From contig CBDBBI010000010.1 in NCBI GenBank assembly GCA_965202625.1, positions 2,720,001-2,784,000 on the forward strand: a stretch of DNA of 64,000 bases, in the 5' to 3' direction. Source of the stretch: a bacterium (GTDB lineage Bacteria; UBA8248). The notes beneath the pieces were generated by a model that made no database searches, had not been told where the DNA came from, and saw nothing but the letters and a program-made list of their open reading frames with translations. The translations under genes were made by a program, and so were the position numbers. Of this stretch, positions 53,078 through 61,673 are shown piece after piece (the stretch's first letter is position 1; the number at the start of each line of letters is the position of its first letter).

Positions 53078-55984
53078 ATGCCGCGCCAGACGGAACCCAG
53101 CGCCAACAATGTCCTGGGAGATTTGCTCCGGGCGATGATGCCCGGTTGCGAGGTGCGCTCGGAGAATACGCAGGTTCTCATCGAACATGCAGGCCGCCGT
53201 CCCGACGTTCTGATCATGGCCCCCGGTCGCGCTCCGGTTGTCATAGAGGCCGAGTTTGAGCCGTCGCCGGGAGTGGAAGGAGACGCTCGGGAGCGGTTGG
53301 GGCTGAGGATTGCGGGCGAGGCGCGCCCTATTGAGGCCGCCATCGCTCTTCGCTACCCGCAAGCGGTGGAGGACGCTTATGACGTGGCCCAGACCCTCGC
53401 CGAGGCGAGGGTGTCCTGGTGCGTGCTACGGGAGGACGGCGTCCGTTTTCCCCTATCGGGCTGGTTGGGAGGGTCGGTGGCCGCCCTGGCTGATAGTATC
53501 CGTCTGGTCTCCGTGCCGCAGAAGGAGGTGGACCGGGCGGCTGACTCCTTGCAGGCCGGAGTGGGCGAGGCGGCAACGATTCTGAATGAGGTAAGCGTTT
53601 TACGACCCGCCATGATGGAGAAAATCGCCGGAATACTCGAGTCGGGCGACACTCTCCAGACCCGCCGCATGGCCTGCGCTATTTTCACCAACGCTATGGT
53701 GTTCCATGAGCGCATCGCCGGAACGCAGCATGATGTGGATATACCCCCCTTGGACCAGGTATGTGGGCCTGAGGCGACCAATCCCAAAGAAAGCGTCCTG
53801 GCTGCTTGGCGAAGTATCCTGCAGGTCAATTATTTTCCGATATTCGACGTCGCCGCGCGGATGTTGGGAGAGCTGTCGTCGGGCTACGCCGCCCGGATTT
53901 TATCCAGGTTGCGCGGTACCGCCCAGCGGATGGACGCCGCCGGCATTCCCCACGCCCACGACCTGACCGGTCGGGTATTCCAAAGGCTCATCGCCGACCG
54001 GAAATACCTGGCGACTTTTTACACGCGCCCGGCGTCGGCTTCGCTTCTGGCGCACATAGCGGTAGCGAAACTGGGGGAAGTGGACTGGTCTGACCCGAAA
54101 GACATCGGAAGCTTGCGGGTTGCGGATTTCGCCTGCGGGACGGGCGCGCTTCTCTCTGCGGTTTATGATCAGATGGCCGCTCGCCACGAGCGGGCCGGCG
54201 GCGATTTGGCGAAAATGCATCCAGTGATGATGGAGGAAGTCCTCTACGGCTGCGACGTGATGCCCTCGGCAGTGCACATCACGAGTGCGACCCTCTCTGG
54301 AGTCCAGCCGGCAATCGTCTATCGCAACTCCCGCATCTACACCATGCCCTACGGGCGACAGAACGAAGGCGCGGCGGCGATAGGTTCTCTGGAACTGCTG
54401 GACAAGAGCGGCCAATTGATTTTGTTGAACATGAACGACCCCGCCCGGCGTGTCGGTAGCGTTGGAGAGGAAACCGCCCCTCAAAACGTGGTGGAGTTTC
54501 CGGATGCAGGCTTCGACCTCGTCATCATGAACCCACCGTTCACGCGGGCGGGATCCGATTGGGATGGTGATAAAACGAAAAAGGGATCAATTAAACAGTT
54601 CGAAGGATTAAGAACCGATCTGGAAACTCAAAAGGAAATGTCCGCTAGGGCAGCGCGATTCGCCAAGGACACCTGCGCCCATGGATACGCCGGCATCGCT
54701 TCTTTCTTCGCCGCTCTGGGGGATCTGAAGCTCAAGCCGGGCGGCGTGTTTGCTCTCGTTTTGCCCTTGTCCGCCGCCACGGGCATATCCTGGGAAAAGT
54801 TCCGCCAAATGCTTTCTGACGACTACGCGGACCTGGAAATGCTGAGCATTGCCGCCAATGGCGATGAGATGTCTTTTTCCTCAGATACGAGCATGGCGGA
54901 ATGTCTGGTTATCGCCCGCAAGCGCAAAGCGACCGACCCTCCTGCGCGGAGTGCGCGCTTTACCTCCCTGCGCCAACGTCCGCAGGGCTTCGTCCACGCC
55001 GCCGAGATAGGCAAGAATATCCTCGCCACCGATGCCGTGAGGCGACTCGAGGACGGACCATACGGCGGCACGCCCCTGATGGTGGGTGATGAAATGGCGG
55101 GAGAGATGCTGACGTCGCCTCGTTCCGCAAACGGTGGCGCGTTGGCCGGAGTGCGCATATCGGACTATTCCCTTGGCCAAACCGCTCATGCGCTGGCGGA
55201 CTCGAAACTATGGTTGCCCGGTATCCTGACGGCACTGGAATTGAAAACCGCGCCCATCGACCTTGTGGGCCGTCGTGGTGTGAGTGATAAGGACATCGTA
55301 GGGCACTCCGCTTTTGCCCCGTTCAGCAAGACATCGCCTAGTCTTACCGCTACTTACCCATGTTTGTGGAATCACGACGCCAAAAAAGAAACCCGGATGA
55401 TCTGCGAGTCTGATTCGTCGTTAATCGTGCGGCCGGGTATGGAGAAGAGAGCCGCCGATGTTTGGGCTACAGCCAGCCGCACCCACCTAACACGTGACTT
55501 TCGTTTCAATTCCCAGCCACTGGCGGTTGCGTTTACTGAGGAAAAATCTATCGGTGGAAGGGCATGGCCAAATGTATTTTTCCCCGATGACAGATTTGAC
55601 TCCGTATTTGTCGCATGGAGCAATTCCACTTTAGGTCTGTTGCTGTTCTGGTGGCACTCTAATCGGCAGCAGGGCGGCCGGGGGCAGATAACCATCAGCA
55701 GGGCCGACACTCTCCCCGTTCTCGACTTGCGCACCTTGAGCGATGCGCAGCTCGCCCTCGCCGAGGAGACGTTTGAGGAGTTTCGGGAGAAGGAATTGAA
55801 GCCGGCGTATTTGGCTGACGCGGATCCGAATCGCGCGCTTCTGGACGAGCGAGTAATCTGCGACCTGTTGGGGTTCGACCAATCTGTGTACCGTGGCGTG
55901 CGGCGTCTGGCGGCCAAGTGGTGCGCCGAGCCGTCGGTGCACGGAGGCAAGAAGCGGCCGCCGGATTCTAAGCTGGTGGCGTAG
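53078..55984 (+). CDS. Single-chain (type IIG/IIL-like) restriction-modification enzyme: nuclease, amino-methyltransferase and TRD
   Basis: N-terminal PDVLI..IEAEF; TFYTRP (motif X); DFACGTGALL (motif I); VIMNPPF (motif IV); TRD-like C-terminus (WSNSTLG..LPVLD). Confidence 0.85.
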   Translation: MPRQTEPSANNVLGDLLRAMMPGCEVRSENTQVLIEHAGRRPDVLIMAPGRAPVVIEAEFEPSPGVEGDARERLGLRIAGEARPIEAAIALRYPQAVEDAYDVAQTLAEARVSWCVLREDGVRFPLSGWLGGSVAALADSIRLVSVPQKEVDRAADSLQAGVGEAATILNEVSVLRPAMMEKIAGILESGDTLQTRRMACAIFTNAMVFHERIAGTQHDVDIPPLDQVCGPEATNPKESVLAAWRSILQVNYFPIFDVAARMLGELSSGYAARILSRLRGTAQRMDAAGIPHAHDLTGRVFQRLIADRKYLATFYTRPASASLLAHIAVAKLGEVDWSDPKDIGSLRVADFACGTGALLSAVYDQMAARHERAGGDLAKMHPVMMEEVLYGCDVMPSAVHITSATLSGVQPAIVYRNSRIYTMPYGRQNEGAAAIGSLELLDKSGQLILLNMNDPARRVGSVGEETAPQNVVEFPDAGFDLVIMNPPFTRAGSDWDGDKTKKGSIKQFEGLRTDLETQKEMSARAARFAKDTCAHGYAGIASFFAALGDLKLKPGGVFALVLPLSAATGISWEKFRQMLSDDYADLEMLSIAANGDEMSFSSDTSMAECLVIARKRKATDPPARSARFTSLRQRPQGFVHAAEIGKNILATDAVRRLEDGPYGGTPLMVGDEMAGEMLTSPRSANGGALAGVRISDYSLGQTAHALADSKLWLPGILTALELKTAPIDLVGRRGVSDKDIVGHSAFAPFSKTSPSLTATYPCLWNHDAKKETRMICESDSSLIVRPGMEKRAADVWATASRTHLTRDFRFNSQPLAVAFTEEKSIGGRAWPNVFFPDDRFDSVFVAWSNSTLGLLLFWWHSNRQQGGRGQITISRADTLPVLDLRTLSDAQLALAEETFEEFREKELKPAYLADADPNRALLDERVICDLLGFDQSVYRGVRRLAAKWCAEPSVHGGKKRPPDSKLVA

Positions 55985-56826: not shown

Positions 56827-57786
56827 TTATGGCGAGGGCACCACGTTTTGCGGCTTTCCCGAGAGGGCGGCAGCGACGTTTTCCACCGACATGAGGAGGC
56901 CCGCTTCCGTCACCTCGGGCGTGATGCCCGCATTATGCGGGGAGAGAACCACGTTTTTCAGTTTCCCCAACGGATGATTCAGAGGCAGGGGCTCCTCGTC
57001 GAATACGTCGAGGCCCGCCGCAGCCAGAGTCCCGTCTTCCAAAGCAGATATGAGCGCCCCCTCGTCCACGATCGCCCCCCGCGCGGTGTTCACCAAAATG
57101 GTGTTTGACCTCATACGGGAGAACGCCCCGGCGTCGACCATGCCGATGGTGTCCGCCGATTGTCGCACGTGGATGGAAACCACGTCGGCGCGTTCATACA
57201 AGGCGTTCAACTCGACGAGCTCCAGTCCCGCCTCCGCGGCGAAAGCCTCGTCCGGATGAAACGTCCAGGCGATGACGTTCATCCCGATGCCCGAAGCGAT
57301 GCGCGCCGTCTGGCGGCCAATGGCACCTAAGCCGATGAGGCCGAGCGTCTTCCCGCTCAGTTGCGTCATCTGGCCTCGGGGCCATGCGCCCGCCCGCGTG
57401 GCGGAATCATTCTGGGGTATCTGACGCGCAGCCGCCATCATCAGGGCTAGGGCGTGTTCCGCCACGGAAACGGCGGCCACGCCCGGCGTGTTCGACACGA
57501 TGATGCCGGCGGCGCCTGCCGCCCCCAGATCGACGTGGTCCGTTCCTGTTCCCCAGATCGAGAGTGTCTTGAGAGCGCGGCAGTTCGAGAAAAAAGCCGC
57601 GTCGAATCTGCAGAAGGCGCGGATGTTGATGACGCCGTCGGCCCCATTTACACGGCGGAGCAATTCTTCGGGCGTTTGCGGGTTCGACGTGTGAATTTCC
57701 ACATCCCCGACCTTCCGCAGACGCGCCTCGGCGGCGCTGTCCAGGAAAACGGAAGGGTAGTCGTCTGGCACAACAATTCGGCTCAC
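56827..57786 (-). CDS. D-2-hydroxyacid dehydrogenase family protein (paralog of 51917-52879)
   Basis: VAEH, GLIGLGAIG, VNTARG, AGLDVFDEEP, SPHNAG. Confidence 0.92.
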   Translation of the reverse strand: MSRIVVPDDYPSVFLDSAAEARLRKVGDVEIHTSNPQTPEELLRRVNGADGVINIRAFCRFDAAFFSNCRALKTLSIWGTGTDHVDLGAAGAAGIIVSNTPGVAAVSVAEHALALMMAAARQIPQNDSATRAGAWPRGQMTQLSGKTLGLIGLGAIGRQTARIASGIGMNVIAWTFHPDEAFAAEAGLELVELNALYERADVVSIHVRQSADTIGMVDAGAFSRMRSNTILVNTARGAIVDEGALISALEDGTLAAAGLDVFDEEPLPLNHPLGKLKNVVLSPHNAGITPEVTEAGLLMSVENVAAALSGKPQNVVPSP

Positions 57787-57906
57787 GGTATAATCCCTTT
57801 AAGTGATAAAAAACGGATGTTCTCATTATTTGCTTTCGCCGCCCTTGCTTGTGCGATATGGTTCTCTCGCTCACACTATTTATGCCACCTAGAGGAGACA
57901 AGACAA

Positions 57907-58461
57907 GTGCCCCCACTCGATCCGCGTAAAGACAGCGTCGTTCCCGGCGAACGCACCATTGACAAGCCGGAACTCCCCTCGCAGGGCTACGCCTTCACCA
58001 TGTCTGCCGACACTGAAACGGTGGAGGGGAAAGGGCAGCTCAAACTGGGGACGCACAGACACTTTGAGGTCTATTGCGATGAGCCGCCCCGCATCGGTGG
58101 GGAGGATTCCCACCCGCAGCCGCTTTGCTACATCGCCATGGGGGTAGGGTTCTGACTCCTCACCCAGCTGGCGCGGTACGCGCACATGATGAAGGTATCT
58201 TTCACGCGCGCGAGAGTGCGCGTGGATTTCGATTATTTTCTGAGCGGCTCCGTTCTCAAGGGCACGGTGAACGCCGGCTGCACGGAAGTCCGCACGCATT
58301 TCGAGGTGGAGTCCGAGGAAACGGCGGAGAAGGTTTTGGCGGTCGTCAAGAACGCGAAGCAAGGGTGCTTCGCCGAGCGGATGGTGACGGACGCCGTTGC
58401 CCTGAAAAGCACGATTGCCTTGAACGGCGATCCGATTTCTTTGAGCGGGGTCACCGAATAA
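57907..58461 (+). CDS. OsmC/Ohr-like protein, probable selenoprotein (UGA = Sec at codon 83, 58153-58155), 184 aa
   Basis: GTG start after AGAGGAG; DEPPRIGGEDSHPQP..AMGVGF-TGA-LLTQLARYA continues in the same frame to AKQGCFAE and TAA at 58461; SECIS-like hairpin downstream of the TGA. Confidence 0.85.
58156..58195 (+). promoter_or_regulatory. Candidate bacterial SECIS element
   Basis: GCGCG-GTA-CGCGC apical stem-loop (58171-58183) with the loop G 21 nt after the UGA; possible lower stem CCTCA/TGAAGG. Confidence 0.65.
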
Positions 58462-58622
58462 GGCGCGCGAGCGCATAGGGCGGACGCCAGGATGCCGCCG
58501 TTTCGTTTTGAGAGTGAGCGGGGAGGCGGCGGCACTGGCTCCTTGACCCATCCGTCCGGGTCGACGATGCGCGGGATGGACGCCTTGTGCGCGGCGCCCC
58601 GTCTCTCTCTAAAACAGGGACG

Positions 58623-60125
58623 CTAGGAGGTCGAATTCGCCGCGACGGCGCGCTTTCCGGCGGCGTTGCCCGCTAGTCGGCCGTAGACGGCGCCCAGGGT
58701 TAGCCCCGCCCCTCCAGGGTAGTTGAAGTAATAGACGCCGCCCACGAGCTCGCCCGCGGCGAAGAGCCCGGGAATGACCTCGTTCTCGGTGTTCACGACT
58801 TCGGTTTTGGGCGTCACGCGGACGCCGCCGAAGGTGAAAGTGATGCCTGTGGTGACGGCGAAGCCGAGATAGGGCGGCTCGTCAATGGGAAGTGCCCAGT
58901 TCGATTTGGGCGGATCGATTCCCTTCGTGTGCTTGCCGTCCTTGATGGTCGGGTTGTATTCCCCCGGCTGGATGGCGGCGTTGTATTCTCGAATCGTTTT
59001 CACGAAAGCGTCGACGTCGATATCGAGTTGCGCGGCGAGTTCCTCCAGGGTATTCGCCTCTGCCTTGGTGACCTCGCGGATGCGGTATTCGTCTCGAAGC
59101 ATGTGCGCCGTTTTCTGGTCGAATATCTGAAACGCGGCTCGCTGAGGCTGCTGGAGAATGTCGCGACCGTATTTGGCGTAGGTGTAGTTTCTGAAGTCGG
59201 CTCCCTCGTCAACGAAGCGTTTGCCCTTGACGTTCACGATGACTCCGAGGGGGTAGGAGTGTTTCTGATAGGATTCTCCCACCGTGAGGTTGCCGAAGGG
59301 CGGAGCGTTCAGATCCCATGCGACGGCGTGGCAGCCGCTCCAGTTGCCGTAGGGCTGGGCGCCAATGTCGAGCGCCATCCTGATGCCGTCGCCCGTGTTG
59401 TAGGGGGTGCCGCGAACTTTCGCGAGTTCCCAGCCCGGACCCAGGTATCGGCAGCGCATCTCCGCGTTCGCCTCGAAGCCGCCCGACGCCAGCACCACTC
59501 CGTGGGCCTCGACCTCGTAAGGACCTTCGGGACCTTTCACCGCAACGCCCGTTACGGTGCCCATGGGGTCGGTGAGGAGGCGAGTCGCCTTTGACCCGTA
59601 GCGGATTTCGACTCCGGCTGCGCACGCCGCGTCAAGGAGCGAGTCGATGAGCCCGCGCCCGCCACCGACGATTTCGAGGATCAAACCGCCCCAGAAACGC
59701 ATCTTGCCGTCCACCTTGAAGGCCTGCCGCCCGCTTGCGAGGATGAGCCGCAAGCCCTTTGAGCGCATCCATTTCAGAGTCGGGAGCGACTCGTGAACGA
59801 GAACGGAGGAGAGGTCGCCGTCGGTCTGGTATTCGGTCAGCAAGGCGAGGTCGTCAAAGAATTTCTCGGAAGTGTAGGGTTCGATCTCGATGGTTTTTTT
59901 TTCGGTCTCGGAAAGGTCCGGAACGAGCGCGTAGATGTCCTCAATGCTGTGAAAGGCAAAGCGAAACAATCCTCCCGAAAAAGCCGAATTGCCGCCGCGC
60001 CATGCTTCGGGCGCCTTCTCGAGCACCAAAACCTTGGCCGCTCCCTGGTCTCGCGCCGCAAGTGCTGCGCAAAGAGCGGCGTTGCCGCATCCCACGACGA
60101 CGACGTCGTATTTCTCTTTTGGCAC
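58623..60125 (-). CDS. tcuA: FAD-dependent oxidoreductase, tricarballylate dehydrogenase TcuA family
   Basis: GCGNAA FAD site, RGGNSAFSGG, LASGGFEAN, RFVDEGADFRNYTYAKYG, GITFTFGG, NYPGGAGL. Confidence 0.85.
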   Translation of the reverse strand: MPKEKYDVVVVGCGNAALCAALAARDQGAAKVLVLEKAPEAWRGGNSAFSGGLFRFAFHSIEDIYALVPDLSETEKKTIEIEPYTSEKFFDDLALLTEYQTDGDLSSVLVHESLPTLKWMRSKGLRLILASGRQAFKVDGKMRFWGGLILEIVGGGRGLIDSLLDAACAAGVEIRYGSKATRLLTDPMGTVTGVAVKGPEGPYEVEAHGVVLASGGFEANAEMRCRYLGPGWELAKVRGTPYNTGDGIRMALDIGAQPYGNWSGCHAVAWDLNAPPFGNLTVGESYQKHSYPLGVIVNVKGKRFVDEGADFRNYTYAKYGRDILQQPQRAAFQIFDQKTAHMLRDEYRIREVTKAEANTLEELAAQLDIDVDAFVKTIREYNAAIQPGEYNPTIKDGKHTKGIDPPKSNWALPIDEPPYLGFAVTTGITFTFGGVRVTPKTEVVNTENEVIPGLFAAGELVGGVYYFNYPGGAGLTLGAVYGRLAGNAAGKRAVAANSTS

Positions 60126-60276: not shown

Positions 60277-60663
60277 TCAACCGCGCTGGGCCATTTCGAT
60301 GCTGACGTTGTCAGGTCCCTTGACGAAGGCGATTTTCACGCCCGGGCGTATCTCCCAGGGTTCGCAAATCCATTCGGCGCCCTTCTCGGTCAACTCTTTT
60401 TGCGCCTCGTCCATGTCGTCGACCAGCAGACCGAAATGATCCAGCCCGTAGCGAGGCTCGGAGCCCGTCCGCACCGGGTCCTCTCCTTTCGCACGGCCCG
60501 ATACGAGGAACGTCATGCCGTTCAAATCCATGTGGAACGACGGGGCACCGCCCAGCTCCCTTTCCTCCAGGACGGTGGCCCCGAACATGTCGATCCAGAA
60601 ATCGCGCGCAGCGTGAGGGTCCTCGCTCCTGAAGTGAATATGATCATATCCGTATTTGGCCAT
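60277..60663 (-). CDS. VOC/glyoxalase family protein
   Basis: YDHIH, GLDHFGLLVDD, AFVKGPDNVSIE metal-ligand pattern. Confidence 0.9.
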   Translation of the reverse strand: MAKYGYDHIHFRSEDPHAARDFWIDMFGATVLEERELGGAPSFHMDLNGMTFLVSGRAKGEDPVRTGSEPRYGLDHFGLLVDDMDEAQKELTEKGAEWICEPWEIRPGVKIAFVKGPDNVSIEMAQRG

Positions 60664-60800
60664 GCGGCAATCCCCTCTCGATAAGCAGTTCCAGGCCATC
60701 ACGTTGGATGATGTATTCAGTTTTCGTTGGACGATGTAAACGCAAACCCTTGGAGTGTAAAGGTTATGGCGGGAAGTGGCAAGAGGAGCAAAAGAAAGCC

Positions 60801-61442
60801 CTAGCCGGGGCCGCCCTCCTCCACCTTGATGAGGTTTTCCGCTTCGGCCATCTCATGGAAAAGCTGGCAGGTGGCCGAGAAATCTTTTTCCAGCTTGTTG
60901 AAGAGCTGGGAAATTTGCTCGGGGGAGACGACTTTGGAGAGTTCACCGTGAACGGCGCGCCAGGCGTGCGTTCCGCGCTCTCCGCGCTGAAGGTCCGTCT
61001 CCGCGCTCTCCGTGATGGCGTTATACGCCTCGCCCTCGCGCTCGAGCAGATCTCTAAGGACAGGCTCGTAGTTGGGATCGTTGGAGAGGAGGTAGCGCAT
61101 GAGGTAGGGCCTGAATTGGCGCGCGCTCGCGATCGGCTGCTGGTCTGGCGTCTCGCGCAGAGCCTGGCACGTGGCGGAGAAATCTCTCTCCATGCGCTCG
61201 AACAACTGCTCGATGTGAAACGGGGTGAGAATGTCGGTCAGTGCGGTGAAAACAACATGCCAAGTCTGGGCGCCTCGCTGCCCCCGCTGCATTTCCGCAT
61301 CTTCACTCGCCGTAATCTGGTCATAGACCTCGTTTTCGAAATTCAGCAGATCTCTGAGAACAGGCTCATAATTCGGATTGTTGGAGTGAAGGTATCGCAT
61401 GAGGTAGGGCTTGAAATTCCGCACTTTCTGGAGTCTGGCCAT
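60801..61442 (-). CDS. Hypothetical protein made of two tandem 100-aa repeats (213 aa)
   Basis: ATG at 61442 after GGAGG; PYLMRYL.SN.PNYEPVLRDLL and DFSATCQ each occur twice, exactly 300 nt apart. Confidence 0.8.
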   Translation of the reverse strand: MARLQKVRNFKPYLMRYLHSNNPNYEPVLRDLLNFENEVYDQITASEDAEMQRGQRGAQTWHVVFTALTDILTPFHIEQLFERMERDFSATCQALRETPDQQPIASARQFRPYLMRYLLSNDPNYEPVLRDLLEREGEAYNAITESAETDLQRGERGTHAWRAVHGELSKVVSPEQISQLFNKLEKDFSATCQLFHEMAEAENLIKVEEGGPG

Positions 61443-61673
61443 GGGGTCTTCCTCCATATCAGGGTCGTGGGACGAATTTAGAGAATGCGCCGAATCATAG
61501 TCGGTCGAGGAGCGCCTGCATGATCGTGAGCGTCCACTATAGCATGATCCTATCACACATTTGGTCCATCTCGTTACGAATAGCGGCGAAATGTGGCATG
61601 ATTCCTGTGGAATTTCTGCATTCGAAGCGGATATCGCGGCGTGAATCATGCGTGATTCTGGGAGAATTTGAGG

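Follow-up and report, generated by a model that had tools for sequence, protein, structure and literature searches.

The question raised by this locus is whether a single in-frame TGA separates two small genes or is decoded inside one larger gene. In the list of open reading frames (ORFs) of the window, by which we mean the whole stretch of 64,000 nucleotides that was analysed, the plus-strand ORFs 57454..58155 and 58186..58461 share one frame, and an earlier note proposed that these fragments, split by a single TGA, join into one OsmC/Ohr-like selenoprotein of 184 amino acids. Retranslation agrees with this proposal: positions 57907-58461 of the plus strand give 184 residues with one internal stop, the TGA at 58153-58155, which corresponds to residue 83, and the frame closes with a TAA at 58459-58461. 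The GTG start at 57907 is preceded by the sequence AGGAG (57893-57897), which stands 9 nt before it, and the starts of the homologues fall at the position equivalent to this GTG. The features of the locus are as follows.

57765..57794, plus strand: promoter-like CTGGCA and TATAAT separated by 18 nt, in the divergent intergenic region upstream of the gene (10/12 matches in a consensus scan only, which is not evidence of function)
57893..57897, plus strand: Shine-Dalgarno-like AGGAG, read off the sequence
57907..58461, plus strand: complete coding sequence (CDS) of a predicted OsmC-related selenoprotein, 184 codons and TAA (translation with TGA as U, Pfam, NCBIfam, AlphaFold)
58153..58155, plus strand: UGA codon 83, predicted selenocysteine that opens the UxxT motif (U-L-L-T) (TGA conservation, Cys alignment)
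58171..58183, plus strand: putative bacterial SECIS-type hairpin with a 5-bp stem (58171-58175/58179-58183) and a GUA loop (58176-58178) (RNAalifold, covariation)
58366..58368, plus strand: TGC for Cys154, the second (resolving-type) Cys, in the motif G-C-F-A-E (31/31 homologues; Cys in 3cje and 2onf)

We consider, with a probability of about 0.93, that a single intact gene occupies 57907-58461, that it encodes a redox protein of 184 residues with the OsmC fold, and that its UGA codon 83 is decoded as selenocysteine (Sec) in a hairpin-dependent manner. The internal TGA is almost certainly read as Sec, assisted by a short RNA hairpin. By analogy with the standard bacterial pathway, SelB together with Sec-tRNA(Sec) would bind the hairpin at 58171-58183, the loop of which starts 20 nt after the UGA, and Sec would be delivered when this codon is in the ribosomal A site, so that translation would run on to the TAA at 58459.

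Conservation of the TGA and the selenocysteine machinery

The NCBIfam model NF041052 was searched in the window’s genome and in 40 relatives (41 genomes). A match above the cut-off was obtained in 31 of the 41, including 22/22 other genomes of the same genus, and every one of the 100 listed matches above the cut-off has exactly one TGA, while the lower-scoring OsmC paralogues in these genomes mostly have none. The region was extracted for 63 of the 100 listed matches (three from the own genome, 20 loci from the search and 40 fetched further), to which the best 80 of 365 metagenome relatives were added, giving a total of 143 sequences, which comprise 125 distinct 72-mers. The codon that aligns with residue 83 is TGA in 143/143 sequences and in 125/125 of the distinct 72-mers, all of the best 80 of the 365 metagenome relatives included. 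The sequence is conserved on both sides of the TGA in the 31 aligned homologues.

These data bear directly on the possibility that the TGA is a true stop and that the locus consists of two separate small genes, is a pseudogene or owes its TGA to a sequencing error in a Cys codon. Standard ORF calling does split the frame at this point, TGA is the commonest stop in the genome, and the energy of the downstream hairpin is, taken alone, non-significant. However, a codon that is identical in all distinct homologues, with both of its flanks conserved, and that occurs exactly once in each listed match of the relatives is hard to reconcile with termination, as are the covariation of the hairpin and the full Sec machinery of the genome, both considered below; we regard a true stop as very improbable. 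A sequencing error at 58153-58155 is implausible because the TGA is kept across genomes. The position of the TGA reflects more than chance, since it is shared by the 125 distinct 72-mers and since the covariation of the hairpin exceeds that of all 500 shuffles.

The protein database consists of gene-caller products, which cannot read through a TGA, and it yielded eight homologues. Their residue in the Sec column is Cys in five cases and Leu, Trp and Ser in one case each (P0003, P0006 and P0009, respectively). The earlier note had expected TGA or Cys, and neither Trp nor Arg, at position 83 of the homologues; this agrees with the TGA of all distinct DNA sequences and with the Cys of five of the eight database proteins, while Trp occurs in one of these proteins and Arg in none. 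Pairing of Sec with Cys in this way is how selenoprotein families are classically recognised. The Trp of P0006 may stem from translation of a TGA with a different code table, and both P0006 and P0009 diverge downstream as if they were frameshifted.

The Cys form was also sought in DNA. With the Cys-form protein P0004 as a query, no relative was found in the genome contigs, and a motif search for the Cys form, built from a smaller alignment and run across one genome per species in ~185,000 species, gave three pattern matches and no relatives. Cys-form DNA, which was intended as a negative control for the hairpin, was thus recovered neither from the genome contigs nor from the best 80 of the 365 metagenome relatives.

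Reading of the TGA as Sec implied to the earlier note that selABCD should be present elsewhere in the genome, and the search of the window’s genome (3.09 Mb, 10 contigs) located tRNA-Sec, selA, selB and selD. The tRNA-Sec gene reaches 75.8 bits (gathering score 47) and is called by ARAGORN as tRNA-SeC with the anticodon TCA. SelA scores 495.3 bits, the SelB-specific winged-helix domain, which is encoded ~3 kb from selA, 76.6 bits, and SelD 332.6 bits; all four components lie above the curated cut-offs.

The selD gene of this genome (G000:C10:1611050-1612009, minus strand; locus L011) has its own in-frame TGA in the context G-G-U-G-S-K, and a hairpin with a small loop starting with G is found ~17 nt downstream of it. 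Since the in-frame TGA is followed by a hairpin, the selD product is predicted to be a selenoprotein itself.

It may also be asked whether the UGA is read as Trp, Cys, Gly or Arg, either by a reassigned code or by near-cognate suppression, as the Trp of P0006 could suggest. TGA is not reassigned in this genome: it closes most of the long frames (570 of the 1128 frames that span 400 codons or more from stop to stop), and the neighbouring glyoxalase-family gene terminates in TGA as well. The site aligns with Cys, not with Trp, in five homologues and in five PDB chains, the dedicated tRNA-Sec, SelA, SelB and SelD exist, and insertion of another amino acid would leave a hairpin with an invariant G-U loop without a role. 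We therefore attach very little weight to such a decoding and continue with Sec as the predicted residue 83.

Hairpin downstream of the TGA

According to the earlier note, a hairpin GCGCG-GTA-CGCGC with a G in its loop is located about 20 nt downstream of the TGA. We find this element at 58171-58183, embedded in Ala-Arg-Tyr-Ala-His codons; a spacer of 15 nt separates the TGA from its stem, and the loop G (58176) occupies position 21 of the sequence that follows the TGA. In single-sequence folding, the minimum-energy structure of a 66-nt segment lacks the hairpin in favour of a competing pairing (z = +1.05), and in a 43-nt segment the hairpin is present with no excess stability relative to the shuffled controls (z = +0.16). 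An Rfam search of 57000-59500 at a permissive threshold left the hairpin without a match and gave two chance matches at other positions.

The same CDS contains a further hairpin of 11 pairs, which is GC-rich, is followed by a T-rich stretch and is terminator-like in appearance (58201-58226, plus strand, 46 nt past the TGA). In the 66-nt fold, this hairpin competes with the 3' arm of the SECIS-type hairpin, and its own 5' arm differs in most orthologues.

The comparative analysis gives a clear signal. RNAalifold, applied to an ungapped alignment of 62 sequences, returns a hairpin of six pairs (columns 27-32 with 36-41), which is the one pointed out in the earlier note, and compensatory changes are observed in 5/6 of these pairs. 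The covariation score, obtained for an 8-pair version, is 0.345 versus 0.111 ± 0.013 in the shuffles, with 0/500 shuffles reaching the observed value, and sliding of the 3' arm by 1-3 columns reduces it to 0.015-0.111. The 8-pair helix as a structure was dropped because its two outer pairs are unpaired in 56/60 and 47/60 distinct sequences.

The pair formed by columns 29 and 39 is the most instructive for separating RNA from protein constraints. Among the 125 distinct sequences it is C-G in 99, G-C in 10, A-U in 15 and mismatched in one. Column 39 corresponds to the third, synonymous base of an Ala codon and column 29 to the middle base of the codon lying three residues upstream; selection on the protein cannot explain their coupling. 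Codon usage within the hairpin is equally uniform. Codon 89 ends in G in 125/125 sequences and is GCG in 91/91 cases of Ala, and codon 90 ends in G in 125/125 and is CGG in 120/120 cases of Arg, versus 812 GCG among 1752 Ala codons (46%) and 384 CGG among 1297 Arg codons (30%) in the rest of the same genes.

The loop is GUA in 119, GUU in five and GUG in one of the distinct sequences, its G and U being invariant (125/125). In the window copy, the sixth pair of most orthologues is replaced by a G-A mismatch, which leaves five pairs and a loop of 3 nt, and such a loop is small for a SECIS. To judge from the aligned sequences, the hairpin is strongly supported by covariation and not by folding energy.

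In the bacterial SECIS of the E. coli fdhF type, a hairpin with G-U in its apical loop follows the UGA immediately, within the CDS. The window hairpin shares with it the location directly 3' of the UGA, the position inside the CDS and the invariant G-U of the apical loop. It differs in being much shorter, with 5-6 pairs and a 3-nt loop (5 nt if the closing pair opens), and, unlike the E. coli element, it has no conserved bulged U that we could identify.

Family, fold and putative chemistry of the product

The read-through product matches the Pfam family OsmC (PF02566) at 46.7 bits (cut-off 27.5) and the NCBIfam model NF041052, named “OsmC-related (seleno)protein”, at 175.5 bits (E = 5.5e-52, cut-off 95), its residues 32-174 covering the profile positions 2-144 of 144. 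The predicted Sec opens the local motif U83-L-L-T86, that is, UxxT. Relative to NF041052, the window copy has the same Sec position as 100/100 listed above-cut-off matches in the related genomes and no family-defining difference; it carries ~30 residues before the modelled domain, an extension common to most homologues.

The earlier note stated that OsmC-like selenoproteins had already been predicted computationally, which is consistent with the literature. Table 3 of the Sargasso Sea survey by Zhang, Fomenko and Gladyshev (2005) includes an OsmC-like selenoprotein family with the motif UxxT, the survey files it under COG1765, “predicted redox protein” (PMC1088965), and the family also appears in review tables of 2022 and 2026 (PMC9312934, PMC13188914). 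The features shared with the family of Zhang et al. are the OsmC homology, Sec in UxxT and, downstream of the UGA, a small hairpin whose apical loop contains a G (PMC1088965). The set tabulated in 2005 comprises three marine sequences, and its subfamily identity with the window gene rests on the motif and on the name of NF041052, not on sequence comparison. Sec forms are generally rarer than Cys forms according to the survey, whereas here all recovered DNA homologues are of the Sec form (PMC1088965). Based on the NF041052 model and the published UxxT motif, the window gene is assigned to an already known selenoprotein family, and it shows all the computational hallmarks of a bacterial selenoprotein gene; it is not new in kind because this family was described in 2005 and is curated as NF041052.

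The AlphaFold2 model, calculated from a 31-sequence alignment, has a mean pLDDT of 93.2 and a pTM of 0.86. In the Foldseek comparison with the PDB, the top matches are OsmC/Ohr crystal structures (2onf with E = 3.4e-10, then 1lql, 1vla, 1n2f and others), with 64 matches at E <= 0.001. The earlier note placed the TGA at the first catalytic Cys of OsmC/Ohr proteins and considered the second Cys to be retained, and both placements hold: in sequence alignment, the conserved first Cys of 3cje, 2opl, 9wo1, 1vla and 2onf (5/5 PDB chains matched) coincides with residue 83, and the second Cys in 3cje and 2onf coincides with Cys154, which is invariant in 31/31 aligned homologues. The predicted Sec83 sits on a long helix (residues 72-94). 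At residue 74, the aligned 1vla and 2opl have a Glu, which we take to be the catalytic Glu next to the peroxidatic Cys, and Glu is present at this position in 0/31 family members.

Ahead of the OsmC domain, the product has a conserved N-terminal extension (P-G-E-R-x-I-D-K-P-E-L-P-x-x-G; window 57907-58070, residues 1-55). It is modelled at pLDDT >= 90, and nothing is aligned to it in the matched PDB chains of OsmC and Ohr.

In a direct comparison with the homodimeric Ohr/OsmC thiol peroxidases, represented by P. aeruginosa Ohr (1n2f) and T. maritima OsmC (1vla), the window protein has the same fold (Foldseek probability 1.00), and both conserved Cys positions are filled, by the predicted Sec83 and by Cys154. 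It differs from them in having Sec for the first Cys, in an identity of only 12-20%, in the missing Glu at aligned position 74 and in the presence of the N-terminal extension.

In the Ohr/OsmC proteins, the peroxidatic Cys attacks the hydroperoxide and forms an intramolecular disulphide with the second Cys, which is then reduced by lipoylated proteins (PMC8945050). By analogy, Sec83, at the first conserved position, would react with an oxidant, most probably a hydroperoxide, and become linked to Cys154, at the second, through a selenenylsulfide; a thiol donor, which in Ohr/OsmC is lipoyl-dependent, would then reduce this bond. Peroxidase chemistry of the window protein, suggested by this analogy, is the weakest step of the proposed mechanism.

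A quite conceivable alternative, although not the one we favour, is that the product is a genuine selenoprotein and not a hydroperoxide reductase, that is, a Sec/Cys protein of the YhfA/COG1765 type that serves a different redox function, such as thiol-disulfide or selenenylsulfide exchange or the handling of sulfur or selenium species. The classification of OsmC-like selenoproteins under COG1765 in the 2005 survey (PMC1088965) is consistent with this role, and so are the absence of the 1vla/2opl Glu from 31/31 members, the conserved N-terminal extension without a counterpart in the matched PDB chains and the score of the product against the Ohr equivalog model, 14.6 bits versus a cut-off of 240. 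In the YhfA-type proteins, as described in PMC8945050, the Arg and Glu close to the peroxidatic Cys are missing, and no activity is known for these proteins. On the other side, the product retains the two conserved Cys positions of the family, with Sec in one of them, the fold matches the OsmC and Ohr peroxidases, and glutathione peroxidase selenoproteins carry a UxxT motif as well (PMC1088965). The hydroperoxide reductase scheme stays our working proposal for the chemistry, and the assignment of the product as a Sec protein is common to both readings.

Paralogues, gene neighbourhood and meaning of the finding

Among the matches listed, exactly three Sec paralogues are present in 20 of the 23 genomes of the genus (the window’s genome included), four in two genomes and two in one genome that is 79% complete. 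The paralogues form three groups with the 5' stem arms G-C-G-C-G, G-G-G-C-G and U-C-G-C-G, which are mutually compensated versions of one stem.

The own genome carries two further OsmC-related genes, at G000:C10:2332558-2332980 (L155) and G000:C10:1742383-1742778 (L014), both of which share the hairpin and the position of the in-frame TGA codon with the window copy. The 5' arm is U-C-G-C-G in the L155 copy and G-G-G-C-G, compensated on the 3' arm, in the L014 copy.

The divergent upstream neighbour of the window gene, which encodes a D-2-hydroxyacid dehydrogenase, is kept in 20/20 orthologous loci, and the convergent downstream neighbour, a gene for an FAD-binding oxidoreductase, in 19/20; all of these loci come from close relatives. 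Genes for aquaporin-family, glyoxalase-family and Eco57I-like methylase proteins are located nearby. The two paralogues sit among different genes from those around the window copy. We infer no functional partner from the neighbours because the loci belong to close relatives and the surroundings of the paralogues differ.

Two gene types recur near one of the paralogues. Glyoxalase-family and Eco57I/type ISP-like methylase genes lie near the window copy at 60277-60702 (minus strand) and 53078-55984 (plus strand), respectively, and paralogue 2 is near the same two types (L155 2383-2865 and 3-2459, both on the minus strand), which may be a coincidence. Window positions 60708-61481 (plus strand) contain an ORF of 257 residues with no Pfam family at E <= 0.001.

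One may speculate further that the OsmC-related subfamily is Sec-dependent almost without exception and that it performs a chemistry which Cys cannot support, unlike the peroxide reduction by Ohr/OsmC, so that it would represent an uncharacterised selenoenzyme activity; we consider this rather unlikely. The suggestion of Sec dependence comes from the TGA in all DNA homologues, from the absence of a Cys-form relative in the search of ~185,000 species and from three anciently diverged Sec paralogues, each with a compensated hairpin. The suggestion of a distinct chemistry comes from the lack of the Glu and the presence of the conserved N-terminal extension, taken together with the Sec-only record.

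For the OsmC-related selenoprotein family, which has been listed since 2005 and is biochemically uncharacterised, the window gene adds a well-documented case. The comparative data define a minimal SECIS, composed of a 5-6 bp stem and a G-U-N loop within Ala-Arg-Tyr-Ala codons, and the RNA structure constrains the synonymous sites at the hairpin codons. The main practical gain is a corrected gene call: ORF finders split this gene in two, and the same split applies to the two paralogues of the own genome and to about three genes per genome across the genus.
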